DNA from: a phage | DNA: 35,772 nt | Strand: one strand, 5' to 3' | Assembly (NCBI GenBank): GCA_019566835.1 | Contig: GCA_019566835.1_3045.2 | Shown here: one piece after another, positions 90-32,952 of the stretch | Layout of the letters: every line of letters starts with the position of its first letter | Position numbering within the stretch: the stretch's first letter is position 1 | Notes under the pieces: generated by a model | Databases searched by the model: none | Told to the model about the DNA's origin: nothing | The model's input: the letters and a program-made list of their open reading frames with translations, nothing else | Position numbers and translations under genes: made by a program

Positions 90-3000
90 ATGGCTACTTT
101 AAAACAAATACAATTTAAAAGAAGCAAAACCGCAGGCGCGCGTCCTGCTGCTTCAGTATTAGCCGAAGGTGAATTGGCTATAAACTTAAAAGATAGAACA
201 ATTTTTACTAAAGATGATTCAGGAAATATCATTGACTTGAGCATTTCCACTGGCGGCAATATCAGTGGAAATATCACTCAAACTGGTGATTATTTACAAA
301 ACGGCACGTATAATCTTAATGGAAACCAGTTTGTTTATGCAGGAAAATACATTGAATTTTTACCTAAAACCGCTGGTAATGGTGCGTGGGCAAATCAACA
401 CCTCAATAAAGCTCCTATCTTTACAGATTTAAGTTCAACTACTTCTGTTTCAGAATATCATCCACTCATTAAGCAGCGTTATAAAGATGGGACTTTTTCT
501 GTTGGTACGTTAGTAAACGAAGGAAGTTTTAAAATTCATTATATTAATGAATCGGGAACTTCAAAATATTGGACATTTCGTAGAGATGGTGGATTTGTTG
601 TTGATACAGGAAGTTTGACAGTAACAGATGGAAATATTTCTGCCTCTGGTAATATTAATTCAGCTACTGGGGTAGTTTCTGCTCCGCAGATTAATACAAA
701 GACTATAGTTTTTGATACAAAAGCGTTCGGACAATATGATTCGCAGTCATTAGTTCAATATGTTTATCCTGGAACAGGTGAAGCAAACGGAATCAATTAC
801 CTTCGCAAATTCCGTGCTAAATCTGGTGGTACAATTTATCATGAATTAGCTTCTGCGCAAACCGGAAAAAGTGATGAACTTTCTTGGTGGACTGGTAATA
901 CAGCGGTTAATAAACAAATGGGCCTTCGCAATGATGGGTCTTTAGTACTACGACGTTCACTTGCAATTGGTACAATTACAACAGATGAAAACATCAATAA
1001 CTACGGTTCCACTGGAGCAATGGGCGAATGTTATATAGTTATTGGTGATGCATCAACAGGTTTATCATACAAAAAAACTGGGGTATATGACTTAGTTGCT
1101 AGTGGTCTTTCTGTAGCATCTATTACTCCTGATAGTTTCCGTAGTACGCGCAAAGCGATTTTTGGACGCTCGGAAGACCAAGGCGGTACGTGGCTTCTTC
1201 CTGGTCAAAACTCATCTCTTCTTTCAGTTCGTACTGAAGCTGACCAAAACAATAATGGAGATGGTCAGACACATATTGGCTATAATAGTAATGGTAAATT
1301 TTATCATTATTTTAGAGGCAGAGGAAGAATGGCCATTGGAATGGCCGAAGGACTTATTGTTGAACCAGGAATTTTAGATATTAAAACTGGTTCAAATACA
1401 TTAAGTTTGCGTGCTGATGGTACCGTCGCTTCTGTTCAAACATTAAAGCTTAATAATGGATTATATTTTAATAGCGATGGAACTAACGCTTCTCTAATTT
1501 TTAAAGCAGCTTCAGGTATTGATGGTACTAAACAAATACTTTGGGAAGGTGGTACTCGTGCTGGGCAGAATAAGAGCTATGTAACTGCTAAAGCTTGGGG
1601 AAATTCATTTAATTCATCTGGCGATCGTAATCGTGAAACGGTTTTTGAAGTATCAGATGGACAAGGATATTATTTTTATGCTCAACGCGTAGCTCCTGCA
1701 CCAGGTTCAACAACTGGTGCAGTTCAATTTAGAGTTGCCGGAGCATTATTAACTTCTGGCGGTATTACATCATCTGGTTCTATTGTTACTGAATCTAGCT
1801 TAGTTGCAAATAATGGATTATCTGTAAATGGACAAGCTAAATTTGGTGGAACAGCAAATGCATTAAGAATTTGGAATGCCGAATATGGCGCCATATTCCG
1901 TCGCTCAGAAACAGCATTGCACATTATTCCTACTCTTAAAGACCAAGGAGAAAATGGTGAAATAGGTAATCTTCGTCCATTGAGCATCTCACTTAACAAC
2001 GGTATGGTTCAAATGCGCCATTCTGTCACGTTAGGTGATGATGGTGCAGGCGGTAATATGGTGACGGTTGATAATGATTCTAAAGTTATAGTAATGACGA
2101 CTAATAGCCGTATTAGTCCTAACTTCCGTATGCAAATTGGACAGTCGTCTTATATTGATGTGGAATGTACTGATGCTGTGAGACCTGCTGGAGCCGGTTC
2201 TTTTGCTTCACAGAATAACGAAAACGTTCGCGCTCCGTTCTATATGAATATTGATAGAACAGATACAAGCACTTATGTTCCTATTGTGAAACAAAGATAC
2301 GTGCAAAATAATAGTTGCTATTCTATTGGTACTTTAATTAATGGTGGTAACTTTAGAGTTCATTATCATGAAGGTGGCGATGGCGGTTCTACAGGCGCAA
2401 TTATAAAAGATTTAGGATGGGAATTTAATAAAAACGGTGATTTTTATTCTCCTGGTAAATTAGGCGCTGGAAATATTAGAATAGGTACTGATGGTAATAT
2501 CACGGGTGGTTCTGGTAACTTTGCTAACTTGAATACAACTTTAAACCGTAAAGTTAATTCTGGTTTTATTACTTATGGAGCAACGGCAGGTTGGTACAAG
2601 TTTGCAACAGTAACAATGCCTCAAGCTACATCAACTGTTTCAATTACAGTCACCGGTGGAAATGGATTTAATTCTGGGTCATTTAATCAGTGTGCAATTT
2701 CTGAAATTGTTCTTCGTACAGGAAACAATACTCCTAAAGGATTAAATGCTGTTCTATATAGAAGAGGACTAAATTCATTTAGAGATATTGCTTGGGTTAA
2801 TACATCTGGTGATACATATGACATTTATGTTAATATGGGAACATATGCTAATCAGTTGATATTTAACTATAGTTCTGTTGATAACGCCACAGTTCAAATT
2901 ATTGGCGCATTCAGCTCAGCTCAAAATCCTGTTGATGCATTGCCAGAAACATATGTTAAAGGTCAGGTAGCAGATGTATTGACTAACTTAGTTGATTCTG

Positions 3001-3953
3001 GAAAAACGAAGCGTTTTGTTGCTGAATCTGAAATAGCTGTTAATAATCAAACTGGATTACGTATTACGAGTAACGGTGATAAATCTGGTTCAAATTCAGT
3101 ATTATTCAGAAATGATGGCGGTAGTTTTTATATTCTTTTAACAGATAAAAACGCAGCAGATGGAAATACGACTGCTACAGAAGGAGATTGGAATGGTAAA
3201 CGTCCTTTCCAAATTAATATGACTTCTGGTGAAGTAACATTTGGAAATAATATTAATATTTCTGGAAACGGAAGCATTAATTGGACAAAAGCCGGAGCAA
3301 ACCCTAGAAATATGAGAATATTTCATGCAGGTGATGCTTCTCGTGGTAACCGTATTGAAATCGCAGATGATACTAACTATATTGCTTACTTTGAAAAAAC
3401 TCCAGGTGGAGCTAACCGCTTTGTAGTAAATAATGCTACTGTAGCTGGTGTTAATCAAATGAATTCATTTGGTATTAACATCAATAACGCGCTTGGTGGA
3501 AATAGTATAACATTTGGTGATAGCGATACTGGTATTAAGCAAAATGGCGATGGATTATTAGACATATATGCGAACAACGTACAAGTATTCCGTTTCCAAA
3601 ACGGTGATTTGTACTCATACAAAAATATAAATGCTCCAAACGTTTATATTCGTTCTGATATTCGTTTAAAATCCAACTTCAAACCTATCGAAAATGCGCT
3701 TGATAAAGTTGAAAAACTTAACGGTGTCATTTACGATAAAGCTGAATATATCGGTGGAGAGGCAATTGAAACTGAAGCGGGTATTGTGGCTCAAACGTTA
3801 CAAGACGTTTTACCAGAAGCTGTCCGTGAAACAGAAGACAGTAAGGGTAATAAAATACTCACTGTTTCTTCTCAAGCCCAGATTGCTCTTCTGGTTGAAG
3901 CTGTGAAAACACTTTCTGCTCGTGTAAAAGAACTTGAATCTAAACTTATGTAA
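90..3953 (+). CDS. 37: Long tail fibre distal subunit gp37, T2-type with C-terminal intramolecular chaperone module
   Basis: 1287-aa ORF. N-terminus MATLKQIQFKRSK...LAEGELAINLKDRTIFTKDDSGNIIDL and internal blocks NAEYGAIFRRSE, AECTDAVRPAGAGSFASQNNE and KQRYVQ match the gp37 signature I recall from T4. Last ~99 aa (SDIRLKSNF...GVIYD...) resemble a self-cleaving fibre chaperone domain. Confidence 0.93.
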   Translation: MATLKQIQFKRSKTAGARPAASVLAEGELAINLKDRTIFTKDDSGNIIDLSISTGGNISGNITQTGDYLQNGTYNLNGNQFVYAGKYIEFLPKTAGNGAWANQHLNKAPIFTDLSSTTSVSEYHPLIKQRYKDGTFSVGTLVNEGSFKIHYINESGTSKYWTFRRDGGFVVDTGSLTVTDGNISASGNINSATGVVSAPQINTKTIVFDTKAFGQYDSQSLVQYVYPGTGEANGINYLRKFRAKSGGTIYHELASAQTGKSDELSWWTGNTAVNKQMGLRNDGSLVLRRSLAIGTITTDENINNYGSTGAMGECYIVIGDASTGLSYKKTGVYDLVASGLSVASITPDSFRSTRKAIFGRSEDQGGTWLLPGQNSSLLSVRTEADQNNNGDGQTHIGYNSNGKFYHYFRGRGRMAIGMAEGLIVEPGILDIKTGSNTLSLRADGTVASVQTLKLNNGLYFNSDGTNASLIFKAASGIDGTKQILWEGGTRAGQNKSYVTAKAWGNSFNSSGDRNRETVFEVSDGQGYYFYAQRVAPAPGSTTGAVQFRVAGALLTSGGITSSGSIVTESSLVANNGLSVNGQAKFGGTANALRIWNAEYGAIFRRSETALHIIPTLKDQGENGEIGNLRPLSISLNNGMVQMRHSVTLGDDGAGGNMVTVDNDSKVIVMTTNSRISPNFRMQIGQSSYIDVECTDAVRPAGAGSFASQNNENVRAPFYMNIDRTDTSTYVPIVKQRYVQNNSCYSIGTLINGGNFRVHYHEGGDGGSTGAIIKDLGWEFNKNGDFYSPGKLGAGNIRIGTDGNITGGSGNFANLNTTLNRKVNSGFITYGATAGWYKFATVTMPQATSTVSITVTGGNGFNSGSFNQCAISEIVLRTGNNTPKGLNAVLYRRGLNSFRDIAWVNTSGDTYDIYVNMGTYANQLIFNYSSVDNATVQIIGAFSSAQNPVDALPETYVKGQVADVLTNLVDSGKTKRFVAESEIAVNNQTGLRITSNGDKSGSNSVLFRNDGGSFYILLTDKNAADGNTTATEGDWNGKRPFQINMTSGEVTFGNNINISGNGSINWTKAGANPRNMRIFHAGDASRGNRIEIADDTNYIAYFEKTPGGANRFVVNNATVAGVNQMNSFGININNALGGNSITFGDSDTGIKQNGDGLLDIYANNVQVFRFQNGDLYSYKNINAPNVYIRSDIRLKSNFKPIENALDKVEKLNGVIYDKAEYIGGEAIETEAGIVAQTLQDVLPEAVRETEDSKGNKILTVSSQAQIALLVEAVKTLSARVKELESKLM

Positions 3954-3954
3954 A

Positions 3955-3972
3955 AGAGGGCTTCGGCCCTCT
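3955..3972 (+). promoter_or_regulatory. C(UUCG)G tetraloop stem-loop in the 37-38 intergenic spacer
   Basis: AGAGGGC-TTCG-GCCCTCT gives a 7-bp stem with a UUCG loop, immediately after the gene 37 stop and before the gene 38 SD. No clean U-tract follows. Confidence 0.45.
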
Positions 3973-3983
3973 AAGGATTTTTA

Positions 3984-4661
3984 ATGGCAATTGTAGGTGT
4001 TCCTGGCTGGATTGGTGAATCTGCCGTGAATGAAACTGGACAACGCTGGATGGATGCTGCAATGAAAGCAGTTCGCGTTTCAGTTCCTGGCTGGATGAGT
4101 TCAATGGCTGGACAATCTAAAGAAGTATATTATAGTGTTGGTGCTAGTAATTCTTATAATAAAGACACACTAATAAATTGGATAAAAGCTCAAGGCAGTA
4201 CTCCTGTTGTTATTACTATTACAGGAAATATTGTTTCTCAATCTACTGGTGTTCCATGCTTAGATTTTCCTAGCTCATTAACTAATGCGTATGTTACCTT
4301 AAATATTAATAGCGGGGTTCATGTATTAGGTCGGGGAGGAAATGGCGGAAGTAACTCTGCTGGTGGAGCAGGAGGAACTGCAATAAATAACGGAATTGGA
4401 ACTCGTTTAAGAATAAACAATAACGGTATTATTGGTGGCGGTGGCGGTGGCGGCGCTGGTGCTAGATACCATCCTTTCCCTCAAATGGATATGATATTTG
4501 GTGGCGGCGGAGGTCGTCCATTTGGCGCTGCTGGCAAATCTTCATATATTCAAGGTGGTACTGGAGGAACTGTTCACTCGGGTGGTGCTGCGGGTAAAGC
4601 TGTTACTGGTAATGCTCCAACTTGGACTAAAGTTGGTACAATATACGGTTCAAGAGTATAA
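3984..4661 (+). CDS. 38: gp38 tail-fibre adhesin, glycine-rich-motif type
   Basis: 225-aa ORF directly downstream of gene 37 with SD AAGGA. C-terminal half holds several glycine-rich motifs (GRGGNGGSNSAGGAGG, GGGGGGGAGA, GGGGGRPFGAAG, GGTGGT, GGAAG) typical of T2/T6-type gp38 adhesins. Confidence 0.8.
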   Translation: MAIVGVPGWIGESAVNETGQRWMDAAMKAVRVSVPGWMSSMAGQSKEVYYSVGASNSYNKDTLINWIKAQGSTPVVITITGNIVSQSTGVPCLDFPSSLTNAYVTLNINSGVHVLGRGGNGGSNSAGGAGGTAINNGIGTRLRINNNGIIGGGGGGGAGARYHPFPQMDMIFGGGGGRPFGAAGKSSYIQGGTGGTVHSGGAAGKAVTGNAPTWTKVGTIYGSRV

Positions 4662-4668
4662 TTTTTGA

Positions 4669-4678
4669 ATAAATATCC
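4669..4678 (+). promoter_or_regulatory. Possible late promoter for t (imperfect TATAAATA)
   Basis: GAATAAATAT lies about 20 nt upstream of the holin start; it matches the T4 late -10 consensus except at the first position. Confidence 0.25.
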
Positions 4679-4693
4679 TTAAAAGGAGGGTCT

Positions 4694-5350
4694 ATGGCAG
4701 CACCTAGAATATCATTTTCGCCCTCTGATATTCTATTTGGTGTTCTAGATCGCTTGTTCAAAGATAACGCTACCGGGAAAGTTCTTGCTTCCCGGGTAGC
4801 TGTCGTAATTCTTTTATTTATGATGGCGATTGTTTGGTATAGGGGAGATAGTTTCTTTGAGTACTATAAGCAATCAAAGTATGAAACATACAGTGAAATT
4901 ATTGAAAAGGAAAGAAATGCACGCTTTGAATCTGTCGCCCTGGAACAACTCCAGATAGTTCATATATCATCTGAGGCAGACTTTAGTGCGGTGTATTCTT
5001 TCCGCCCTAAAAACTTAAACTATTTTGTTGATATTATAGCATACGAAGGAAGATTACCTTCGACAATAACAGAAAAATCACTTGGAGGATATCCTGTTGA
5101 TAAAACTATGGATGAATATACAGTTCATTTAAATGGACGTCATTATTATTCCGATTCAAAATTTGCTTTTTTACCAACTAAAAAGCCTACTCCCGAAATA
5201 AACTACATGTACAGTTGTCCATATTTTAATTTGGATAATATCTATGCTGGAACGATAACCATGTACTGGTATAGAAATGATCATATAAGTAATGACCGCC
5301 TTGAATCAATATGTGCTCAGGCGGCCAGAATATTAGGAAGGGCTAAATAA
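4694..5350 (+). CDS. t: Holin T
   Basis: 218-aa ORF with strong SD AAGGAGGG. Sequence MAAPRISFSPSDILFGVLDRLFKDN... with one transmembrane segment and a large periplasmic domain matches T4 holin as I recall it, same length. Confidence 0.96.
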   Translation: MAAPRISFSPSDILFGVLDRLFKDNATGKVLASRVAVVILLFMMAIVWYRGDSFFEYYKQSKYETYSEIIEKERNARFESVALEQLQIVHISSEADFSAVYSFRPKNLNYFVDIIAYEGRLPSTITEKSLGGYPVDKTMDEYTVHLNGRHYYSDSKFAFLPTKKPTPEINYMYSCPYFNLDNIYAGTITMYWYRNDHISNDRLESICAQAARILGRAK

Positions 5351-8207: not shown

Positions 8208-8357
8208 TTACTGCATGACTGTGATAACTGTCATAATAACACGTTGAATTCCGAACGCAAGAAGACCTCCTGCTACGGCTGGAACAACACCTAAACCCGC
8301 CAGTAAAATGCTACCGGATACTAATGCAGCGCTTGTAATACCTATGAATGGACTCAT
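8208..8357 (-). CDS. Small hydrophobic membrane peptide (49 aa)
   Basis: MSPFIGITSAALVSGSILLAGLGVVPAVAGGLLAFGIQRVIMTVITVMQ. ATG overlaps the gene 52 stop (ATGA) and SD GAGGAA sits inside the 3' end of gene 52. Confidence 0.5.
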   Translation of the reverse strand: MSPFIGITSAALVSGSILLAGLGVVPAVAGGLLAFGIQRVIMTVITVMQ

Positions 8358-9682
8358 TTGATTTCCTCTAAATCTTTAGTGTATTCGGTAACTACATCAG
8401 TAGTTTTCCAATATTCGTTTTCTTCTTTCTTAGCTTTAGCTTCTTCAGCAAGTTTCTTTGCTTCGTCGGAAGTCATATGAAAAATATTCATTCCGACTAG
8501 TTTATCAACATAAGAAGAATACATCTCAATTTTAGAAAGTTCTTCGGTCAGTTCTTTACGAGTTTTACCCTGCACATCAATTTCACCTGAAATTACTTTC
8601 TTAATAAAATGTGCCTTGGCAAAGGCTAAACGAAATGCTGATTCAGTTTCTTTGATTTTGTTATCAATTCGTTTTTGGACATAAGTTTTACGAACTTCAA
8701 CAAAGTCTTTAATTAAATCAACTACGTTATCGTAAACTTGCAGCTTTCCTTTCTCATTAATAACCGTAATATTCTGAGAACGACGCTCAATCAACCCGAA
8801 GTCTTTCATAATTTTTGCATGGCGTTCTTCTTCATTATCGCTCAAAGAATATTCTTTACGGAATTTAACTTTAAAGCCAAAACCATGCTCACCACAAGCA
8901 TCATCCCATGTAATGAAGCCTTTATCTTCAAGTGGGTCTAAGATTTTACTCACATAAGTTTCACGATCATACTTATACGGAATCTCAGTGATATGCATTT
9001 GAGTTCGTGAAGTAAACTTATATGTTCCACGAATTTCATATTGCCCATCAATTTCAACGACTTCACCACGAAATTCTGGGAATTCTACCTTCGGTTTAGT
9101 TACTTTCTTTCCTTGAAGAGCTTGTAGTACAGCTTTCTTGACAGAAGAAACACTATGAGGAAGAATGTAAGTTGCATAACCAGTTGCAATACCGGAAACA
9201 CCATTAAGAAGAACAGTAGGAATAATAGGCAAATAGAAAGCAGGCGGAATGTGTTCTTTATCTTGATGTACCGGAGCATATTCAGTATCTTTATATACGT
9301 TATAGAAATTTTTACTTACGCGAGCAAAAATATAACGACTTGCTGCTGCTTTTTGAACGGTACGAGAACCAAAGTTTCCTTGACCGTCTAACAGAGGAAA
9401 GTTATTATTCCAAGTGTTAGCCATCAAAGCCCCCGCATCTTGTGCAGAGTTTTCACCATGATGATATCCAAGGTCAGCTACACCACCTGCAATAGAAGCT
9501 AGTTTGTGAAACTTATCTTTATTTCCCCGTGCCAAATCAAGAGCTCGAGCAATAACAAATCGTTGAACTGGCTTAAATCCATCAATCATATTTGGAATAG
9601 CACGATTTTCAACCGTGTACATAGCATAAGCCAATGCTTCATTATCAATGATACTTTTTAAATCGCGATTATTCAGTTGCAT
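8354..9682 (-). CDS. 52: DNA topoisomerase II medium subunit (GyrA-like) gp52
   Basis: 442-aa ORF, MQLNNRDLKSIIDNEALAYAMYTVENRAIPNMIDGFKPVQRFV... (GyrA N-terminal breakage-reunion motif); T4 gene 52 position and size. Confidence 0.93.
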   Translation of the reverse strand: MQLNNRDLKSIIDNEALAYAMYTVENRAIPNMIDGFKPVQRFVIARALDLARGNKDKFHKLASIAGGVADLGYHHGENSAQDAGALMANTWNNNFPLLDGQGNFGSRTVQKAAASRYIFARVSKNFYNVYKDTEYAPVHQDKEHIPPAFYLPIIPTVLLNGVSGIATGYATYILPHSVSSVKKAVLQALQGKKVTKPKVEFPEFRGEVVEIDGQYEIRGTYKFTSRTQMHITEIPYKYDRETYVSKILDPLEDKGFITWDDACGEHGFGFKVKFRKEYSLSDNEEERHAKIMKDFGLIERRSQNITVINEKGKLQVYDNVVDLIKDFVEVRKTYVQKRIDNKIKETESAFRLAFAKAHFIKKVISGEIDVQGKTRKELTEELSKIEMYSSYVDKLVGMNIFHMTSDEAKKLAEEAKAKKEENEYWKTTDVVTEYTKDLEEIK

Positions 9683-9686
9683 AAAT

Positions 9687-9827
9687 TTACCATACTAGTG
9701 AATGTAGTGCCATAATAACATCAGAAATGAAAAGCACGACTTGAATTAATCCAAACATTACTCCATAATATAGTGCTATTAATAAAATAGCAAGGGCTAA
9801 TGAATAGCCCAAGATTTTCTTAATCAT
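9687..9827 (-). CDS. Small hydrophobic peptide (46 aa)
   Basis: MIKKILGYSLALAILLIALYYGVMFGLIQVVLFISDVIMALHSLVW, read from the sequence; its start overlaps the stop of the ORF upstream. Confidence 0.35.
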   Translation of the reverse strand: MIKKILGYSLALAILLIALYYGVMFGLIQVVLFISDVIMALHSLVW

Positions 9828-9978
9828 TAGTAGATAACAACACAAATGTTAAATATGCACACATACCCTGAGCTAAAGCTTGCGAAAACACACTGCTGGC
9901 ATCAATACAGATAGTTAAAACACATGCTACTATCCAACAAATAAATGAAATAACTCCTAATAATTTTGCAATATTCAT
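9820..9978 (-). CDS. Small hydrophobic peptide (52 aa), paralog of the 51-aa peptide
   Basis: Start taken at MNIAKLL with SD GAGGAG. Shares the motif SSVFSQALAQG with the neighbouring peptide (SVFLQASAQG). Confidence 0.45.
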   Translation of the reverse strand: MNIAKLLGVISFICWIVACVLTICIDASSVFSQALAQGMCAYLTFVLLSTND

Positions 9979-9988
9979 AATATTCTCC

Positions 9989-10144
9989 TCAACTATTTTT
10001 AGAACCAATGTACGCGAATAATGATAAAATCGCTAATACGCCCTGAGCTGATGCTTGCAAAAATACTGAAGTTTCTCCAGTTATTACTGTTCCGATGCAT
10101 AAAAAGAACCAACAGAAAAAGGCTATACCGTGAACAAATTTCAT
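9989..10144 (-). CDS. Small membrane peptide (51 aa), possibly Ac
   Basis: MKFVHGIAFFCWFFLCIGTVITGETSVFLQASAQGVLAILSLFAYIGSKNS with SD GAGGAAAAT; lies between stp and gene 52 where T4 carries ac. Confidence 0.45.
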   Translation of the reverse strand: MKFVHGIAFFCWFFLCIGTVITGETSVFLQASAQGVLAILSLFAYIGSKNS

Positions 10145-11564: not shown

Positions 11565-11647
11565 AATAACCTCATTACAAAAGTAAATGTTAAACAAATT
11601 ACTGGAATACTAATTAACCAAACAAAACACCACCATAGTGAACTCAT
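11561..11647 (-). CDS. Tiny hydrophobic peptide (28 aa), candidate
   Basis: MSSLWWCFVWLISIPVICLTFTFVMRLL; ATGA overlaps at both ends. Confidence 0.25.
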   Translation of the reverse strand: MSSLWWCFVWLISIPVICLTFTFVMRLL

Positions 11648-11907
11648 AGCTCAATCTCAGCGATTTTCATTTCATTACTATTAATAGCCGCTTTAAGACT
11701 ATCTGAAAGAATTACATTCCAGTGGTCATTCATATGACCATTAACTAAGCGTGTAATTTCTTCAGGAGTTGAAAAATAAGGCTGATCAGACTCCCAATGC
11801 GATAATCCTAAGCGAGTATAAATCATGCCTTCATCATCGCTAGAATATTCAACTGACACAAACTCATCAGTTATTTTATGTTTAGCGTAATAAAATTTAA
11901 ATTTCAT
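11644..11907 (-). CDS. Hypothetical protein (87 aa)
   Basis: Start taken at MKFKFYYAKHK with SD GGAGAA, directly downstream of an early promoter. Confidence 0.6.
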   Translation of the reverse strand: MKFKFYYAKHKITDEFVSVEYSSDDEGMIYTRLGLSHWESDQPYFSTPEEITRLVNGHMNDHWNVILSDSLKAAINSNEMKIAEIEL

Positions 11908-11941
11908 TTTATTCTCCAAATCCGTATCAGTTGATAGTTGT

Positions 11942-11971
11942 ATAGTACCACGGTCCTTGTGGCATGTAAAC
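11942..11971 (-). promoter_or_regulatory. T4-type early promoter
   Basis: Minus strand reads GTTTAC, 18 nt, GTGG-TACTAT; overlaps the 3' end of denB. Confidence 0.6.
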
Positions 11972-11987
11972 CATTTTATGAAATTTT

Positions 11988-12545
11988 TTAAATGGAAAGA
12001 TACCATCCGTTGTAGTTGCTTTTTCTTACAACCTTACGAAGGTCTTCTCTATCACCGATGAACTTCGGAGTGTACTGGATGACACCTGGATGAATTTCTT
12101 TAGTGTTGAATATAATTATACAGTCAGCGACTTGATGATTTAGAATGGGCCCTAGATTTATTCCAGAACCGTATGGATACTCTCCGCTGTATCCTGTCGT
12201 TACTGAAATCCATCGAGAGTCAGTTTGGTGTGTTTTAACTTCTACCCGAAGCCCGCAGTATTTTGGATGTGCTAAAACATCCCATGCATATGTATACGGA
12301 TCATCGACGTCTTCTTGACCTTTATTAACATACCCACTTAACCAATCTGCTACAACATACTCAGCATACACTGCGATACGGCATCTTTCGATAACTTCTG
12401 CTTTATCCTGGTTCGGGTTTTGTTTTAAAGAGTATCTTGCTGTATCAGCAATTTTGACCTTCATTTCACTAGTCAAGTCACTGTTCGATAGGGTAAATGT
12501 CGGAATCTGAAATAGTCTCTGTAAACCCGGATTCGTTTTCTGCAT
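11988..12545 (-). CDS. denB: Endonuclease IV DenB
   Basis: 185-aa ORF in the T4 denB position between ndd and rIIB, same length; SD AAGGAAAG. Confidence 0.75.
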   Translation of the reverse strand: MQKTNPGLQRLFQIPTFTLSNSDLTSEMKVKIADTARYSLKQNPNQDKAEVIERCRIAVYAEYVVADWLSGYVNKGQEDVDDPYTYAWDVLAHPKYCGLRVEVKTHQTDSRWISVTTGYSGEYPYGSGINLGPILNHQVADCIIIFNTKEIHPGVIQYTPKFIGDREDLRKVVRKSNYNGWYLSI

Positions 12546-13785: not shown

Positions 13786-15963
13786 TTAGGCCGCAAGGGC
13801 CTTCATAGTTTTAGCGATTTGAGAAACTTCATCATCACTTAAAGAGTTGCGATATCCGATGAAGTCGGAAACAATACGGAATTTCTTGGTAAACTCAGCA
13901 ACCATTTTATCACTGTTTTTTGAAGCATTATTTGATAATACATCAAAAAGATTAGTTACTGTCCAGATGTCATGACCGATGGTATCTTTTCCACCATTAA
14001 AATATACACCGCGCAATGAACTAACTATATTAGCGAGTCGTGTATATTCTTCAGAAACTTCATCTGTACTGAAGTACTTCATCATAAAATCTAGTTCAGG
14101 ATACTTGATAATTTTATCAATATATCGTTGAGCTGAACTTGAATAACCTACATACTTATCATAATCTACATCATCAAAAGCATCTACATATAAATCACGC
14201 AAAGCTTCAAAAATACATTGGCACTGACCGAGTTCTTTTACCTTTTTCTGTAAAAGCGGACGAATAACATAAAATTCATTAATGCCAATAAGATTAGCCA
14301 TACGAATCAAAATATTCATAGATGGATGACAAAGTGATGTAGTACCATCCATAGAGAAAATATCAGAACGATGCATATACGCTACATAACCAGTAATTTC
14401 ATCTGCTTCTGACGTAAGTGTAAATAATTCCTCTTTTTCCCAACGCCCATCTTTAATTTCAAACTTAAATGCTGTAGCAGCTTTAGGACGAGGAGCTTTA
14501 CTTTTAACTACCTTTGGAATATAGCTTTTAACTAAAGCTTCAATTTCTGACAAATAATGAATGTTAACTTCATCACTTTCAAACATTGCCATAATATCAG
14601 GTAGTAAATCAATCTGCGATTCTACTTCTGGATTAATAAACAGAAGACGCTCATTATGATGAATATTTAAGGTGTTATTAAATTCGCTATCATCTAATGC
14701 ACGTGCTAATCCACGGACAATATTAACGCGATTTTTAATATTATCAATAACAATATTAATTTTTGTCGTATTAATACCAAACAGACGATAGCTTGATGCA
14801 ACGGCTGAAGTTTCATGACTTTGCTTAATGCGTTTCAGTCGAGGGTCAAGATTTACTTCATACACAACTCCTGCATTGCATAACTTACTGTCAGGTTCAA
14901 ACATGCTCTGCATCTTTTTATATGACAGATTTTTAGTCGTGAATTTGACCGAATTACTAATCATATAATCTCGAGCAGAATACCCCATCTTCATTAATTC
15001 GCGATATGTATGACGAGGAGATGTAGATTCTTTAAATCGTTTTACATCTTCATTAAATGCTTTCTCACTGAGTTCTTTAACTCGTTCAATAATATTTTTA
15101 CGAGTGCGATCATCTAGTGAAAGAGCCTCGCGAGATGGAGCAATATCAAGTGAACCCATTGGAAACTTAATGTAATTCACTTCATTGCGAATGCTTAGCC
15201 AGTTACGCTCTCTAATAACACCATCGATAGGATAAACAATACCACCATAGATAGCATATAATCCACCACGATCAGGCCAGTATCTTTCTGGATTTACACC
15301 GTAATAGTCATCAAAATCCGGAAAATAATCAATTTCGCGGTCAAGACCATTAATGATAGCCAAATCTTTGAACGGTCGCATGATATAAGAAACTTCATAA
15401 GCAAAGTTTCTAAAGTCTTTTTCTTCAACTGGAACTACGATTTCAATACCAGTTTTATCATCTGGACCCATTTCTTTCACGAATGTAGGTTTAATTTGTG
15501 GACCATCGCCATCCATGTAAGCTACATAACCACGAATTTCACCTTTATGATACGAAGTAATACTAAATGTATCAGTATAACTAAACGGAGATTTAGAACC
15601 TAAACCAAATCCGCCAATGAAATCGTTAGATTCAGCCTTAGATGAACTGAAGTATGAATTATACAAACCAGGAGAATTATCATCACCCTGAATATCAAAA
15701 TCACTCATACCCGGACCAAAATCTCGGCAAACAAATCGTGGATCTAAACGTCCAGGAACTTGAATGATAAATTTTTCAGGATTTCCATTGAGAGCATGGG
15801 CATCAATCATGTTGGTAATCAATTCACGGACTACTGCGCGAATCTTGTTTGTATACAAATCAGACGACAGAATTTTAAATACTTTAGGAGATGCTGTGAT
15901 GCTAAATGCTTTCGATTTAGAACCATTACCAAGAATTGTTTCTTTTTCAGTGGTGATAATCAT
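13786..15963 (-). CDS. rIIA: rIIA protein
   Basis: 725-aa ORF adjacent to rIIB; T4 rIIA length and position. Confidence 0.9.
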
Positions 15964-15973
15964 AATTTCCTCA

Positions 15974-16177
15974 TTAATTCATATTACGCTTAATAACTTC
16001 AGCAACTTCTAGTAGTTCATCTTTAGTTGCGGTGTCGGATTGAATTTTATCTCTAATATCTTTAAAGCGGTTTTTAAATTCTTCGGCTTCTCCCATATCG
16101 AAAAAGCGTTGAATGATTCTATATTCTCGATGAACTGCTTTATCAAAAAGTTCTAAATTTACTTTATATGATTTCAT
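15974..16177 (-). CDS. Hypothetical protein (rIIA.1 position)
   Basis: 67-aa ORF with SD GAGGAT, directly downstream of an early promoter. Confidence 0.65.
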
Positions 16178-16202
16178 TTCAATATCCTCATTTACCCAAT
16201 TA

Positions 16203-16232
16203 ATTATACCACATCCTTGTGGTAAAGTAAAC
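16203..16232 (-). promoter_or_regulatory. T4-type early promoter for the rIIA.1-rIIA-rIIB unit
   Basis: Minus strand reads GTTTAC, 18 nt, GTGG-TATAAT; the -35 element overlaps the gene 39 stop codon. Confidence 0.65.
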
Positions 16233-18049
16233 TACTGGCTCATCCATTCTTTACGAAGGTCAGCATTATCTCCCATGAGCATTTCAAAAAGCTCTTTCCA
16301 GTTCTCAGGAAGTTTAACAACATCATATACTGGATTTTGAATCATTTCACGATATTCAGATTTTTCCAAAGAGCCAAGTCCTTTAATATAACGGATGCTA
16401 TGTTTAGGTAGAGCATCTTTGGCACTCTCATATTCAGCGACTGTATAAAACCATTCTTGTTTTTTACCGACCTGAGCGATGATTACAGGAGTTTTGACAA
16501 AGCGAATTCGTCCTTGCTCAAACAATTCTGGCCAATTACTAAAAAATCCGAGCAGAGAAGGATAAATGCTTCCTAGACCATCATGGTCAGCATCAGTCAT
16601 AATAGCAATATTGCGATAATTCATGTTTTCAGCTTTTTCACCAAGAACTAATCCAGTGATTGCGCAAATATCAAATAGTTCTTTGTTTTTAAGCATATCT
16701 GCATAAGACATACCCCAACTGTTGAGAACTTTACCACGCAATGGATAACCACCATGAAGTTCTTTATCACGAACATCAATAAGATATCCGATAGCAGAAT
16801 CACCCTCAGTCAAGAAAAGAGTAGTATCAGCATCTTTACCGCACAGATTAGCTTTAATATGTTTATGAACCTTTGCCTTAGAAGCCTTTTTAGCTGCTTT
16901 AGTTTCAGCTGCTTTTTCTGCTGCCAATTTACGAGCTAGTGCAGCTTCAATAATTGGCATTAAAATTGCTTCATTATTTAAAATAGCGCGTGAAATCTTT
17001 TTAGCGTCAAGTTGAATATGACTACGGATTTCACCAAATGGAGAAGTCAAACGCTCTTTAGTTTGAGAATCAAATCGCATGTTTTTCATATCACGAACAA
17101 ACATAACGATAGTCAAACATTCTTTAACGCGTGCTTTAGTTACATCAATTTTGAACTTACGTTTGATTTGTGGAATAAGGTCTTCACAAATATCATCCAT
17201 AACACAGTCAATGTGATGGCCACCATTCTTAGTATGAATGTTATTGACGTATGTTAATTGACGAAATCCATCCGGTGAACGACCAACCGCAATAGAACAA
17301 TTTTCTTGTTCTTGAACAATAGCATGTTCATCATACTGTAGTGCATATTTCTTAAAATTGCCCTGAACCTTTTTACCATTAAAGGTAAATTGAATATCAG
17401 GATAAACAACAGCAAGTGTCTGGAGACGATCTAGTGTAATGTCAAGATAAACTTGGGACAGCTCATTAGTTTCAAATGACATAAAATCTGGAATGAAAGT
17501 AACACGAGTTCCTTTCCATTTTCCAGGAATAGTTTCCCAGGATTTATTTTCCATGCCATTTGAACAACGAACTACAATATTATTTTGACCATCGCCAGTT
17601 TCACCGACAAACATCACAGAAAAAATGTTAGTTAAACTAGAACCAACACCATTCATACCACCGGTGACACGTTCTTTATCATCACCAAAGTTACCACCCG
17701 CTTTTGGAATAGTCCAAGCAGCAACTGGACCAGGAATTTCTTCACCGGTAGGTGTTTTAACCATCGCTTGTGGAATACCACGACCGTTATCTTCAACTGT
17801 TACTTGATTGTTTTTAATAGTAACATTAATTTTATTTGCGAATTTAAACTTAGTACGAATACCTTCATCTACTGAGTTATCGATAATTTCATCAATAAGC
17901 TTAACAAGACCAGGTACATACTGAACACTTTCCCATTTACCAAACAGAAAGCGCTCATGCATTTCATTAGCAGAAGAGCCAATGTACATGCCACTACGCT
18001 TTTTGATATGTTCAATATCGCTCAGAATTTTAATTTCATTCTTAATCAT
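16232..18049 (-). CDS. 39: DNA topoisomerase II large subunit (GyrB-like) gp39, uninterrupted
   Basis: 605 aa from the ATG at 18049 (SD GAGGATAAG; the ORF-track start at 18052 is GTG). N-terminal GHKL ATPase motifs (DEIIDNSVDEG, EDNGRGIP) and a C-terminal Toprim-like region sit in one frame. Confidence 0.92.
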   Translation of the reverse strand: MIKNEIKILSDIEHIKKRSGMYIGSSANEMHERFLFGKWESVQYVPGLVKLIDEIIDNSVDEGIRTKFKFANKINVTIKNNQVTVEDNGRGIPQAMVKTPTGEEIPGPVAAWTIPKAGGNFGDDKERVTGGMNGVGSSLTNIFSVMFVGETGDGQNNIVVRCSNGMENKSWETIPGKWKGTRVTFIPDFMSFETNELSQVYLDITLDRLQTLAVVYPDIQFTFNGKKVQGNFKKYALQYDEHAIVQEQENCSIAVGRSPDGFRQLTYVNNIHTKNGGHHIDCVMDDICEDLIPQIKRKFKIDVTKARVKECLTIVMFVRDMKNMRFDSQTKERLTSPFGEIRSHIQLDAKKISRAILNNEAILMPIIEAALARKLAAEKAAETKAAKKASKAKVHKHIKANLCGKDADTTLFLTEGDSAIGYLIDVRDKELHGGYPLRGKVLNSWGMSYADMLKNKELFDICAITGLVLGEKAENMNYRNIAIMTDADHDGLGSIYPSLLGFFSNWPELFEQGRIRFVKTPVIIAQVGKKQEWFYTVAEYESAKDALPKHSIRYIKGLGSLEKSEYREMIQNPVYDVVKLPENWKELFEMLMGDNADLRKEWMSQ

Positions 18050-18076
18050 CACTTATCCTCGTTTGGTTTCGGGAAT

Positions 18077-18101
18077 ATTATACTCCGGTAATCATAAAGC
18101 T
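18077..18101 (-). promoter_or_regulatory. Middle-type promoter upstream of gene 39
   Basis: Minus strand reads TTTAGCTTTA, 12 nt, TATAAT; one mismatch to the MotA box TGCTTtA. Confidence 0.4.
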
Positions 18102-18119
18102 AAAGGCCCGAAGGCCTTT
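18102..18119 (-). terminator. C(UUCG)G tetraloop hairpin terminator
   Basis: AAAGGCC-UUCG-GGCCUUU overlaps the stop of the lipoprotein gene. Confidence 0.45.
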
Positions 18120-18388
18120 TATTTAAAACGAATAGTTGAATCCTTAAAGAACAGCCCAGAACATACTGTTCCTTCTACTTTCTGCCCGGTAGGTCCAATA
18201 GCACGAAATCCAGTATGTTGGAAATCATTTTCAGAGCAACCGAACCAGTTATATCCAGTGATTTCAATATTCGTAAAACCACTTGATGATAAAATTTTAG
18301 TTGCATTATCAGCATCAGTACATCCTACTAAAGATACTGCTAATACTAATGCTGCGATAGAACGATTAATATATTTCATAATTTTCAC
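18119..18388 (-). CDS. Putative lipoprotein (89 aa)
   Basis: N-terminal signal peptide ending in lipobox LVGC (SIAALVLAVSLVGC). Confidence 0.65.
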   Translation of the reverse strand: MKIMKYINRSIAALVLAVSLVGCTDADNATKILSSSGFTNIEITGYNWFGCSENDFQHTGFRAIGPTGQKVEGTVCSGLFFKDSTIRFK

Positions 18389-18756
18389 TTAAATTTAATA
18401 GCTTGAAGAAGACTAATAATTCTCAAGCGACTTCTTTCATCTTTAACTGTAAAGGAAAGAGGGTCGCCAGATTTCATGGTAATAGTGCATTCAAAATCAA
18501 AATCTTCTGTGACTTCTTCGAAGAAGTCAAATTCTTCAGCATAAATTAGAACATTACTCTGAAAACTGTGAAGAATTTTTCCGTTATTTCCAGACGCTGT
18601 ACTAATCATCGTAACATTATGACCTTTCATATCTTCAACGATAAATTCGCTTGTAGATATTACAGCATTAATAGAACCATTCCTATAAATAGCAGACATT
18701 AGATATTTCTTTTCTTCGCCTTCGCGAATACGATATTTCTTACCGATTTTAAACAT
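18385..18756 (-). CDS. Hypothetical protein (123 aa)
   Basis: ORF with SD AAAGGA; ATGA overlap with the downstream gene. Confidence 0.65.
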   Translation of the reverse strand: MFKIGKKYRIREGEEKKYLMSAIYRNGSINAVISTSEFIVEDMKGHNVTMISTASGNNGKILHSFQSNVLIYAEEFDFFEEVTEDFDFECTITMKSGDPLSFTVKDERSRLRIISLLQAIKFK

Positions 18757-18758
18757 AA

Positions 18759-18935
18759 TTATCCTTTAAGTAAGTCGTAAAATCCGCCATTCACATGCTT
18801 AGGAGCAGAAGGCCGACGAGTAGACAAACGATGACATTTAGGGCAAACATCATTTTCTCGTTCAGAAATCTTTTTAATTTTTTCATATTCATGCCCGCAA
18901 TCTTCGGATTGGCATTTATAATCATACATTGGCAT
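18759..18935 (-). CDS. Zinc-ribbon protein (58 aa), FmdB-like
   Basis: MPMYDYKCQSEDCGHEYEKIKKISERENDVCPKCHRLSTRR... has two CxxC pairs and the M-P-x-Y-x-Y-x-C start typical of FmdB-type zinc ribbons; SD AAGGAA. Confidence 0.5.
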   Translation of the reverse strand: MPMYDYKCQSEDCGHEYEKIKKISERENDVCPKCHRLSTRRPSAPKHVNGGFYDLLKG

Positions 18936-19968: not shown

Positions 19969-20388
19969 TTATGCTAAAGCTGCTTCGCACCATTTTTTAA
20001 TTTGGAATTCAGGAACTACCATGAACTGGCCTGCAAAAACAATATTGTAGAGCTTGACACCATCTTCTACCCAACGGTCCGAAATAAAACCAGCGACTTG
20101 ATTCGTTGTCCATGGAGTTCCATCTGTTGCCGCCGCAATTGTGAATTTATGGTCTTTTACAACTAAAACTGAAGAACAAAGTTTCCATTTAAATGCGCTT
20201 TCTTCTGGCTCAATGAACTGACTTGAGACATAACCAATGTTACCATCAGCGTCACGAACTTTAACCTCGTTACGACCAAAAACTGGATCACTTACAGAAA
20301 GAACTTCAACCAGCTTTCCTGCAACTTTAGAACGAGAAGCAACGGATACATATACGTAATCACCAGTAGAGAGATTTGCAATATTCAT
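19969..20388 (-). CDS. Hypothetical protein, paralog family member A (139 aa)
   Basis: SD AAGGA. Shares the N-terminal SRSK-AG-LVEV block and the C-terminal GF-TD-W-EDG-KLYNIVF module with the next gene. Confidence 0.7.
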   Translation of the reverse strand: MNIANLSTGDYVYVSVASRSKVAGKLVEVLSVSDPVFGRNEVKVRDADGNIGYVSSQFIEPEESAFKWKLCSSVLVVKDHKFTIAAATDGTPWTTNQVAGFISDRWVEDGVKLYNIVFAGQFMVVPEFQIKKWCEAALA

Positions 20389-20397
20389 AATAATTCC

Positions 20398-20871
20398 TTA
20401 AGCTTTACGAGGAGAAGCATAACGAGTGATTTCAGATTCTTCAACAACCCGGAAGTCACCTAAGAATACGATATTGTAGAGCTTTTCACCATCTTCAACC
20501 CATTGGTCTGTGATGAAGCCACACATCCTATCAGTTTTACTTGGACCAGCGAAATCATCAATATAATCGAATTCTTCATCAGTTACAAATTCAACGCCTT
20601 TACACAACGCCCATTTAAATTGTGTATTAGACTCAGTGGATTCAACTTCTTCAACAGAAGCAAAATGAGAGCTAACACGAGTTTCCAGAAATTTAGGACT
20701 TACGTAAGCGTACTGAGTTTCAGTTTTTCCAGAACCAGGAATGATTCGAACTTTAACTTCTTTAACACGACCAGTACCATTAGTACGAAGTCCTACCACT
20801 TCAACTAGACGACCTGCAGCTTTAGAACGAGATGCAGACGATACACGCTTAATTTCACCGATAGTAATCAT
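20398..20871 (-). CDS. Hypothetical protein, paralog family member B (157 aa)
   Basis: Start taken at MITIGEIKRV, because the longer in-frame ATG lies inside the upstream promoter. Same conserved N- and C-terminal blocks as member A. Confidence 0.7.
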   Translation of the reverse strand: MITIGEIKRVSSASRSKAAGRLVEVVGLRTNGTGRVKEVKVRIIPGSGKTETQYAYVSPKFLETRVSSHFASVEEVESTESNTQFKWALCKGVEFVTDEEFDYIDDFAGPSKTDRMCGFITDQWVEDGEKLYNIVFLGDFRVVEESEITRYASPRKA

Positions 20872-20914
20872 AATTTTTCTCTCTTTGTTGTTAAGATTTA
20901 TACTCCGCAGGACC

Positions 20915-20944
20915 ATTATACTCTGGTCCCAAGAGTTTGTAAAC
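20915..20944 (-). promoter_or_regulatory. T4-type early promoter
   Basis: Minus strand reads GTTTAC, 18 nt, TATAAT, with a second GAGTATAAAT about 20 nt downstream. Confidence 0.55.
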
Positions 20945-21381
20945 TAGCTTACACGAACATTAATCACTGCGCTGCGAGGAACTACAGAGTACTCTCCAGC
21001 ATGAACTACGTTCAGAAGTTCAACACCATCTTCAATCCACTGATCAGTCACCCATCCACCCACAGGATTCGCGAATGGACGACGAATATAAACTGCCTTA
21101 CACAGCAGATCAGTTGGATCTTCAGGTTTTTCAATTTCTGTCAATAGACTAAAATCTTTTTCATAAATAATAAGCGGTGATACCATTCCATAATAGTTTC
21201 TAATTTCAATATACATCATACCGATAAGAATTCCGCTATTAACACTAATAACAGTAAAAGGATATCCGCCAGTTAAACCAAGAAGTTCACAAAACTTATT
21301 ATGAGCTGTATTAGACAGTACCGAAAAATTCTTAATTTCATCAAATTTTTTCAATTGATAAACAGCATTATTTTTAATCAT
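20944..21381 (-). CDS. Hypothetical protein, paralog family member C (145 aa)
   Basis: C-terminal GWVTDQWIEDGVELLNVVHAGEYSVVP matches the shared module of members A and B; the N-terminus is unrelated. Confidence 0.7.
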   Translation of the reverse strand: MIKNNAVYQLKKFDEIKNFSVLSNTAHNKFCELLGLTGGYPFTVISVNSGILIGMMYIEIRNYYGMVSPLIIYEKDFSLLTEIEKPEDPTDLLCKAVYIRRPFANPVGGWVTDQWIEDGVELLNVVHAGEYSVVPRSAVINVRVS

Positions 21382-29577: not shown

Positions 29578-29787
29578 TTAAATTACATGATTATTTATAA
29601 TAAATTCTCGCGGAACGTTAAAATATCCGATTTTAGTTAATATAACAACATCACCGTTAATAATTACCGGAGAATAATCTTCTGGAGTGTTAAATTTCCA
29701 ATGGGATCTAATATTATATCCATCAGAACCAAATGCTCGAGTAGCCGGTCTCCCGGCTTTTTGCCACGCGTAGAAATCAAATTTCAT
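29578..29787 (-). CDS. Hypothetical protein (69 aa; soc.1-type ORF)
   Basis: Small ORF between soc and gene 56. Confidence 0.55.
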   Translation of the reverse strand: MKFDFYAWQKAGRPATRAFGSDGYNIRSHWKFNTPEDYSPVIINGDVVILTKIGYFNVPREFIINNHVI

Positions 29788-29978
29788 TTTGAATGCTCTA
29801 TAATTAATTTTAAAGCTTCTTCACTGACAAAAATTTCGTCAGGACCTTCTATAACTTCAACCATACGAAGTTGATTAGTTAAGAGCTCACATACGAGCTC
29901 CTTGTTATAATCTTTAAATAGCTGGTCAATACGTTTCTTATGGGCTTTCTTAAGCTGACGCTTATTTAAACGAGCCAT
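29784..29978 (-). CDS. Hypothetical protein (64 aa; soc.2-type ORF)
   Basis: Small basic ORF overlapping both neighbours by 1-4 nt. Confidence 0.55.
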   Translation of the reverse strand: MARLNKRQLKKAHKKRIDQLFKDYNKELVCELLTNQLRMVEVIEGPDEIFVSEEALKLIIEHSK

Positions 29979-30496
29979 TAATAACCTCGGTCTTGACGAG
30001 CGAAGTTTTCAGCATTTTTCAGGTAATAAAGTTTAAAGATTTCTTCAGCCGACATTCCAAGAGCAATAAATTTATTCATGAAAAAGTGAAATTGGTCAAT
30101 CAGTTCAAATTTAATTTCAAGCTGATCTTCAGGAGATAAGTCTTGAATTTTCTTGGATTGCATTTCAGAATAACGTTTCTTCCAAGGTTTCCATACAGCA
30201 GAAGCTTCTTTTTCACCATTACTCATACCACCAAGAGAAGTATATAGCTCGCGAGTTTCGTCTGCGATATAATCGTCTTGGTTTCGCAGCCAAGCAAGAA
30301 CTTCTCCTGCAGTTTCAAGTGAATCAGGATGACGATTTGTTTCTGGTTTATCATTAGCCAAACGAATCTGTAAATGCCGCTGCATGTCAAGCATAACCTG
30401 CAATGGGTCAATACTGTGCATAATATACTCAGCATATGCACGATTTGCTTTATCAACACCTTCGATCAAATGAGCACATTCATTAAAGTGAGCCAT
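29978..30496 (-). CDS. 56: dCTP pyrophosphatase gp56 (MazG-like)
   Basis: Start taken at MAHFNECAHL with SD AAAGGAAAAATA, giving 172 aa; the ORF-track N-terminal extension is hydrophobic and lacks an SD. Confidence 0.8.
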   Translation of the reverse strand: MAHFNECAHLIEGVDKANRAYAEYIMHSIDPLQVMLDMQRHLQIRLANDKPETNRHPDSLETAGEVLAWLRNQDDYIADETRELYTSLGGMSNGEKEASAVWKPWKKRYSEMQSKKIQDLSPEDQLEIKFELIDQFHFFMNKFIALGMSAEEIFKLYYLKNAENFARQDRGY

Positions 30497-30530
30497 TATT
30501 TTTCCTTTCAATTCATGGGTTAGTAGATTA

Positions 30531-30556
30531 ATTATACAATAAATATATAAAGCAAT
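30531..30556 (-). promoter_or_regulatory. MotA-dependent middle promoter for gene 56
   Basis: Minus strand reads ATTGCTTTA (perfect MotA box), 11 nt, TATAAT, about 30 nt upstream of the gene 56 start. Confidence 0.55.
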
Positions 30557-30567
30557 AAGGAGGACAT

Positions 30568-30768
30568 ATGGTACAAAAATTAATGGCACTTGTTAATGCC
30601 ATAAAAGGTAATAAAAAACGTATAGCTTTTACTATTTCTGCTATGGTAGGAATTTTACTCTGGAACTTTATTTTATCACCAATTGCAATTGCGCATGGTG
30701 TTAATATTCCAGTAGTTACTCTTGATACATTTGTAGATTTAGCATTTGCTTTAGTTGGGTTGATTTAA
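30568..30768 (+). CDS. Plus-strand small membrane protein (66 aa) in the 56-61 gap
   Basis: Consensus SD AAGGAGG 4 nt before the ATG; hydrophobic product; fills the gap exactly, with its stop overlapping the gene 61 stop. Confidence 0.5.
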   Translation: MVQKLMALVNAIKGNKKRIAFTISAMVGILLWNFILSPIAIAHGVNIPVVTLDTFVDLAFALVGLI

Positions 30769-31960: not shown

Positions 31961-32005
31961 ATTAACCTCTATTCATAAAAGCATTAAAAATTTGGTCATC
32001 AATAG
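31958..32005. repeat. Direct repeat copy 1 (gene-junction cassette, about 48 bp)
   Basis: CATATTAACCTCTATTCATAAAAGCATTAAAAATTTGGTCATCAATAGA is about 92 percent identical to the copy at 32316-32363. Confidence 0.8.
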
Positions 32006-32318
32006 ATGGCGCAGTAATATTTTCTGCATCATTTAGTAAATCATTAATTTCATCAGATAGCATAACACATGTACCTTTATTTCCTGTAATTGTTACTGCA
32101 CAATTACGAACGTTTTCTTTATCAAATTTTAGGTTAATATTTTCGTAGTGAAAATCCTTTAATGCCGAATATATCTTTAAAATGAAATTGTCTTTTACTA
32201 CAATAAACCCAACCTCACTATTAAAACGCGGTTCATGGAAACTGTAATAAACCTTTTCATCTATAAAATCGTATGAAATTTTTTCCATTTTTAAATATGA
32301 AAATTCAGAACTATACAT
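31962..32318 (-). CDS. Hypothetical protein (118 aa; 61.x position)
   Basis: C-terminal 14 aa SIDDQIFNAFMNRG are shared with the upstream 210-aa gene. Confidence 0.6.
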   Translation of the reverse strand: MYSSEFSYLKMEKISYDFIDEKVYYSFHEPRFNSEVGFIVVKDNFILKIYSALKDFHYENINLKFDKENVRNCAVTITGNKGTCVMLSDEINDLLNDAENITAPSIDDQIFNAFMNRG

Positions 32319-32363
32319 ATTAACCTTTATTCATAAAAGCATTAAAAATTTGATCGTCAATAG
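32316..32363. repeat. Direct repeat copy 2 (gene-junction cassette)
   Basis: CATATTAACCTTTATTCATAAAAGCATTAAAAATTTGATCGTCAATAGA. Confidence 0.8.
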
Positions 32364-32952
32364 AAACTTTTACTTTAGGCTGTTCTTCAAACGGTAATTC
32401 ATATCCACATATTACAATTTTGTGATCGATACCAAAATACACAGAAGCAATATTATTAATATTATTTTCAGTGAAATCTAAATCAACATCAATATCTTTT
32501 TGACTAACGCTCAAAGGATAATTAATACGAATAATTCGATTATCTTTAACAAAGATTCCACCGACATACTCTGTGCTGCGTTTAAAGTTTACACGTTTCC
32601 TAAATGAAAAATATTCAGGTTCTTTATGGGCTCGACTCATAGGGCTTAAAGTGTATTCCGAATATGAAATATCAAATCCTACACCTTCAATATGAGCCAA
32701 AGTGTCATGATTAAACCAATTATAATCGTATGCCAAATCCATTAAATTGTAATATGTGAAAGGCACCGGATTAACATCATATGTTGTACCTTTAAAATCT
32801 GCCCAGGCAACGATTTCGTTATCTTTAACAATTACAAAAATTGTGCCAATAAGATATCCACGGTTATTTTCATCAGGCGTTATATTATAACATTGTGCAT
32901 CAGGAAATTTACCGTATTTAAACGGTGGATTTTTGTGCATATAATAAATCAT
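32320..32952 (-). CDS. Hypothetical protein (210 aa; 61.2-position ORF)
   Basis: ORF ending SIDDQIFNAFMNKG. Confidence 0.7.
   Translation of the reverse strand: MIYYMHKNPPFKYGKFPDAQCYNITPDENNRGYLIGTIFVIVKDNEIVAWADFKGTTYDVNPVPFTYYNLMDLAYDYNWFNHDTLAHIEGVGFDISYSEYTLSPMSRAHKEPEYFSFRKRVNFKRSTEYVGGIFVKDNRIIRINYPLSVSQKDIDVDLDFTENNINNIASVYFGIDHKIVICGYELPFEEQPKVKVSIDDQIFNAFMNKG

Follow-up and report, generated by a model that had tools for sequence, protein, structure and literature searches.

The stretch of phage DNA analysed here (35,772 nucleotides; hereafter the window) carries gene 39 on its minus strand at 16232..18049, as an uninterrupted frame of 605 codons plus stop that was recognized from the ORF list, its Pfam domains and its match to T6 gp39. 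The first-pass annotation had reported a single uninterrupted 605-aa frame with the right coordinates and length, leaving the strand unstated. The gene starts with the ATG at 18049 and ends with the stop codon at 16232-16234. The ORF caller had begun the frame at a GTG (16232..18052, 606 aa); gene 39 of T4, T2 and T6 starts at the ATG that follows one codon later, and from this ATG the frame has 605 aa. A Shine-Dalgarno sequence, GAGGA, is located at 18056..18060 (-), 7-11 nt upstream of this ATG (upstream letters ACGAGGATAAGTG). Stop codons occur on the minus strand at a frequency of 0.070 per codon, at which a run of 606 codons without a stop has a probability of ~9e-20; this excludes a chance ORF.

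Domain content of gp39 and its gp52 partner

The gp39 chain carries a GHKL ATPase domain, a transducer domain and a TOPRIM domain in one polypeptide. Pfam HATPase_c was matched at residues 47-149 (38.4 bits; cut-off 26.4), and the N-box and G-box motifs of the GHKL ATPase are present as DNSVDE at residue 57 and GGMNGVG at residue 130. The transducer was matched by DNA_gyraseB at residues 246-384 (51.4 bits; cut-off 27) and includes the QTK loop at residue 329, while TOPRIM_C was matched above its curated cut-off at residues 519-604. Both parts of the TOPRIM E...DxD motif, EGDSA at residue 415 and DADHDG at residue 486, reside on the single chain. The codon of Glu415 lies at 16805..16807 (-), as placed from the motif, and this residue is the catalytic metal-binding Glu named for T6 (PMC11461880). 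The six DADHDG codons, 486-491, lie at 16577..16594 (-), as placed by codon alignment with T4 and by motif position, and provide Asp486, Asp488 and Asp490, the acidic residues that accompany Glu415. The metal site of the T6 protein is formed by E415, D486 and D488 of the E...DxD motif (PMC11461880), and the corresponding residues are present in gp39 here.

The GyrA-like breakage-reunion partner is encoded by gene 52 at 8354..9682 (-), a 442-aa frame identified by its match to gp52 of 8YO3 and 8YLU and by synteny with T4. It is intact, with residues 1-442 matching the gp52 chains of both structures (E ~5e-296).

We compared gp39 with T6 gp39 (PDB 8YLU) using the protein sequence of the PDB entry. 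The two align over residues 1-605 with 601/605 identities, the four substitutions being L237R, M476L, R479H and Q526H; the first three positions follow the numbering of the T2 comparison, and position 526 was read by eye from the alignment. Relative to T2, gene 39 shows 96.75% nucleotide identity with 5 of 605 residues different. The claim of a T2/T6-type allele thus held. Codon differences were predominantly synonymous, with synonymous to non-synonymous ratios of 51:5 against T2 and 57:11 against T4. Taken together, the motifs, the domains, the partner gene and the mostly synonymous differences indicate that gene 39 encodes an intact gp39 under purifying selection. Judged by its sequence, the 605-aa product is the complete GyrB-like large subunit (gp39) of a type IIA topoisomerase (phage topoisomerase II).

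The junction and the search for the cassette

We aligned the window with genes 39, mobA and 60 of the T4 reference (NC_000866, 2458-5328) by blastn, global alignment and codon alignment. Gene nucleotides 1-1418 (window 18049..16632, minus strand) correspond to T4 5328..3911 with 96.0% nucleotide identity, and the last 336 nt of the gene are 99.1% identical to the 3' part of T4 gene 60. Between them lies a 64-nt 'parental' segment (gene nucleotides 1419-1482, codons 473-494; 16568..16631, minus strand), which stands opposite 1117 nt of T4 (3910..2794) and is not colinear with it. Within this segment, 48 nt (codons 476-491) show 75% nucleotide identity to the cassette-borne T4 homR copy, and the 9 nt that follow the homR counterpart differ (CTAGGAAGC in the window versus TTAGGTTCT in T4). 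In the published anatomy of the MobA element, the insertion begins at nucleotide 1419 with deletion of 64 nt (Manning & Atkins, bioRxiv 10.1101/2022.08.31.505936), homR shares 67-81% identity with the parental sequence, and 9 extra homR nucleotides follow the bypass in clade 1 (10.1101/2022.08.31.505936). The boundaries found here reproduce that anatomy.

The same arrangement was seen at the protein level. The T4 gp39-gp60 fusion chain (8YO3) aligned with window gp39 in two blocks by HMMER: window residues 1-473 matched fusion residues 1-473, which are T4 gp39, and window residues 472-605 matched fusion residues 543-676, which are T4 gp60 27-160. By codon alignment, window residues 476-605 are colinear with T4 gp60 31-160. 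A single ORF is therefore colinear with T4 gp39 plus gp60, and the allele is uninterrupted. The first-pass annotation had proposed that one ORF covers the whole GyrB-like subunit and had named a missing gp60 part as the outcome that would overturn this; the frame aligns over its whole length both with T6 gp39 and with T4 gp39 plus gp60, and the gp60 part is there. At the junction itself, the T4 take-off codon Gly46 (GGA) corresponds to Gly491 (GGT) of the window, which is directly followed by Leu492 (CTA, 16574-16576), with no stop and no gap; codons 490-493 read GAT GGT CTA GGA. No mobA or mobA remnant lies between ORFs, and no 50-nt gap with matched GGA codons was found, as a T4-type split of 39 and 60 would have. 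The native 64-nt segment is retained and the extensions and mobA are absent, which identifies the parental allele.

We then searched the whole window for parts of the cassette and for homing endonucleases. The 50-nt bypass sequence had no match in the window with up to 3 mismatches allowed. The MobA query was the protein of phage T4T, where mobA is intact; the reference T4 record has it as a pseudogene. Across MobA, SegF, the gp39 C-terminal extension and the gp60 N-terminal extension, the best tblastn match in the window had E = 0.17, and the best for MobA had E = 6.6. The Pfam scan covered 86 stop-to-stop ORFs, all of those outside eight large well-known genes with a minimum length of 50 aa in the coding direction and of 80 aa in the opposite one, and no GIY-YIG, HNH, LAGLIDADG or other homing-endonuclease family was found among these 86 ORFs at E <= 0.01. 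A crude GIY-YIG regular expression gave one match, inside rIIA, a gene outside the Pfam scan; we took this match for chance. By synteny with T4, each segment of the window is either the orthologue of a non-endonuclease T4 gene or one of a few window-specific stretches. A cassette relocated to another place in the window was ruled out, as the bypass, mobA and both T4 extensions are absent throughout. No structured RNA in the window scored above the Rfam gathering thresholds. These data bear out the earlier statements that the gene has no 39/60 split, no bypass segment and no endonuclease ORF, and the impression by eye that the window lacks GIY-YIG and HNH motifs agrees with the scan of the 86 ORFs.

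The frequency of the uninterrupted state was assessed in a phage collection. T4 cassette DNA was present in 43 records, and a 201-nt query across the window junction was contiguous in 456 records. Another 42 records (541 places minus 499 records) matched the junction query at two separate positions, consistent with the cassette-bearing set. The counts of 456 and 43 make the uninterrupted allele the majority state, in ~91% of close relatives, and T4 the exception. The uninterrupted gene 39 of the window is thus an already known and ordinary form, the ancestral or 'parental' one, and the comparison of parental with split alleles has been published (Manning & Atkins 10.1101/2022.08.31.505936; Nat Commun 2024, PMC11461880). 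The suggestion that the locus is a clean comparator for the T4 insertion is valid as such and at the same time redundant: ~91% of close relatives in the collection share its state, T2, T6, RB14 and hundreds more fill the role, and the boundaries are the same as those published. What the analysis provides is the correct annotation, a complete topoisomerase II large subunit (gp39, '39+60' type) in a genome without the mobA cassette.

Other features of the window

A promoter and terminator consensus scan of 15900-18800 returned 5 promoter-like sites versus 12 in shuffles. The one strong site, a sigma-70-like promoter match, lies at 16203-16231 (-), directly after the gene 39 stop and upstream of rIIA.1, with TTTACT, a 17-nt spacer and TG-TATAAT (10/12). 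On the other side of the gene, a 123-aa ORF at 18385-18756 (-) lies between 39.1 and 39.2; it adds 372 nt relative to T4 and has no Pfam family, and T6 has an ORF of equal size between the same genes, annotated as 'similar to RB69ORF005c'. The motB region is expanded or replaced relative to T4 (847 nt versus 420 nt), with ORFs at 19969-20388, 20398-20916 and 20944-21381 (-). Two adjacent ORFs (139 and 172 aa) match Pfam motB and the next (145 aa) matches weakly, to the motB C-terminus, which suggests tandem paralogues.

Several intervals around genes 56 and 61 also differ from T4. Between soc and gene 56, T4 carries segF (GIY-YIG, 696 nt), whereas the window has 415 nt at 29599-30015; SegF had no tblastn match in the window. 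Two small ORFs occupy the segF place at 29578-29787 and 29784-29978 (-), of 69 aa (Pfam DUF7422) and 64 aa. Gene 56 (29978-30589) is ~75% identical to its T4 counterpart, compared with 96-97% in the flanks. The dam DNA adenine methyltransferase gene is absent: 40 nt (30516-30557) separate genes 56 and 61 where T4 has 919 nt, dam included (16805-17725), and Dam had no tblastn match in the window. An extra 118-aa ORF stands beside the 61.2 orthologue (210 aa), the pair lying at 31962-32318 and 32320-32952 (-), and the extra ORF accounts for 309 nt that T4 is without. Pfam AdfA (anti-DarT factor A) matched two stretches near 61.2, with coordinates given for the 210-aa ORF alone; we infer that the extra ORF is the second AdfA stretch, probably a partial AdfA paralogue.

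At the ac locus, where T4 has a single ac, two adjacent, mutually similar small hydrophobic ORFs are found at 9820-10008 and 9989-10144 (-), with ~145 nt extra relative to T4 (9992-10136); ac appears to have been duplicated in tandem. A 120-aa ORF without a Pfam family lies between the ndd.6 and denB orthologues at 11644-12006 (-), including ~225 nt that T4 is without. The tail-fibre genes (90-3953 and 3984-4661, plus strand) are not of T4 type. The 1287-aa gp37 is 72-84% identical to T4 in patches and its 3' end is unalignable, and the 225-aa gp38 matches Pfam GP38 and Gp38_N, a T2-type adhesin unlike the assembly chaperone gp38 of T4. For window positions 1-25000, the best matches in the phage collection reached 94-96% identity over 88-96% of the query in 5-11 pieces, and the closest records were Shigella phage Sf24 and Escherichia phage teqsoen. 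By these matches, the source is a mosaic Tequatrovirus without a near-identical genome in the collection.

History of the locus and comparison with known systems

We regard the locus as almost certainly a functional, never-split gene 39 of a Tequatrovirus (a T-even phage), a complete topoisomerase subunit in its 'parental' state. The ORF integrity, the domains, the colinearity with gp39 plus gp60, the absence of the cassette, the partner gene and the purifying selection on which this reading draws were all observed directly. On this account the MobA (HNH) cassette, which in T4 splits the gene into 39 and 60 and adds a 50-nt segment for ribosomes to bypass, would never have invaded gene 39 of this phage.

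Another history would leave a similar locus. An ancestor could have held the MobA/bypass cassette until recombination with a cassette-free relative removed it cleanly, making the present gene a secondary revertant. T-even genomes are highly mosaic, and the best database relatives of the window reach only 94-96% over 25 kb in 5-11 pieces. Moreover, the last ~300 nt of gene 39 are near-invariant, with no difference from T2 and 3 from T4, compared with ~4% divergence upstream, and this tract could reflect recent exchange; 'hit and run' histories in other clades are also reported (10.1101/2022.08.31.505936). However, the conserved 3' tract is found in T2 as well and is therefore not a T4-specific footprint. 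The 64-nt segment is of T2 type (3 nt different) rather than homR type (75% identity to T4 homR), and there is no trace of the C-terminal and N-terminal extensions, which published hit-and-run cases retain (10.1101/2022.08.31.505936). Since a clean replacement looks the same as a locus that was never invaded, the revertant history gains no positive support, and we consider it very improbable. That the frame is intact but belongs to a decaying or non-functional copy is scarcely credible, as all catalytic motifs from DNSVDE to DADHDG are in place, the protein is 99.3% identical to the active, structurally solved T6 protein, the synonymous excess is strong, and the ribosome-binding site and partner gene are intact.

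A never-split gene 39 bears on the behaviour of the phage in mixed infections. T2, whose allele served in the original MobA homing experiments, reportedly receives the cassette that MobA copies during mixed infection, and its gene 39 is reported to be nicked by MobA, ~20 nt upstream of the bypass insertion point (10.1101/2022.08.31.505936). We placed the nick approximately, from the review-style wording 'bypass insert, 20 bases downstream', and on this placement the 64-nt segment would contain the MobA nick-site region. From gene nucleotide 1437, 16 nt upstream of the nick position so placed, through to the stop codon, the window sequence does not differ from that of T2, and this stretch includes DADHDG and the Gly-Leu junction. 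The three nucleotide differences from T2 in the segment lie 17-27 nt upstream of the nick position, at codon 476 (ATG in the window, TTG in T2) and codon 479 (CGC in the window, CAT in T2), so that gp39 here carries Met476 and Arg479 in place of the Leu and His of T2 and T6. From the identity to T2 around the nick position, the allele is predicted to be a susceptible MobA homing target in mixed infection with a MobA-positive phage, and this phage would act as recipient, not donor, of the mobA/bypass cassette. Met476 and Arg479 might alter MobA recognition, or the near-invariant 3' tract might be the footprint of a past gene conversion associated with homing, followed by cassette loss; taken jointly these ideas are a long shot, and if either were true the locus would exemplify, in nature, a cassette-free allele that resists the MobA element or has recovered from it.

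Of the known systems, T6 provides the closest match. Its gp39 (YP_010067157.1; PDB 8YLU, 8YO1, 8YO5, 8YO7, 8YOD, 8YON and 9IMJ) has the same length of 605 aa, the same single-chain ATPase-transducer-TOPRIM architecture and the same gp52 partner, and its gene neighbourhood is that of the window, down to the 372-nt ORF, absent from T4, that separates 39.1 from 39.2. Structures of the T6 gp39-gp52 heterotetramer have been solved and its relaxation activity has been measured (PMC11461880). By the 99.3% identity to T6 gp39, gp39 and gp52 of the window would assemble as an A2B2 type IIA topoisomerase. Such an enzyme uses ATP to move one duplex through a double-strand break opened transiently in another, and the ATP-dependent relaxation activity attributed to gp39 on the same grounds would relax DNA during phage replication. 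T2 gene 39 (AP018813.1, 2447-4264) is likewise uninterrupted and encodes 605 aa, but the small ORF between 39.1 and 39.2 is a different one in T2.

T4 shares the flanking genes rIIA.1 and 39.1 with the window locus and differs at gene 39 itself. Its 1117-nt cassette comprises a C-terminal extension that lengthens gp39 by 43 aa, mobA, an N-terminal extension of 30 aa on gp60, homR and the 50-nt bypass, with homR being a diverged, recoded copy of the replaced stretch. The bypass lies between GGA codons with a UAG after the take-off codon, so that programmed ribosomal bypassing is needed, and the T4 enzyme consists of three subunits in which the Glu and DxD motifs sit on separate chains, in contrast to the one chain of the window protein.

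Cellular type IIA topoisomerases have the domain order and catalytic motifs of gp39 in GyrB and ParE and in the N-terminal half of eukaryotic Topo II. In a search of PDB sequences, gp39 matched human TOP2A and TOP2B, yeast Top2 and ParE over its full length (E 1e-48 to 1e-59), and GyrB was matched too. Compared with these enzymes, gp39 belongs to a separate short phage lineage. The 442-aa gp52 is much shorter than GyrA and is without the C-terminal DNA-wrapping domain. The phage enzyme, as is well established, relaxes DNA and does not supercoil it (PMC11461880).
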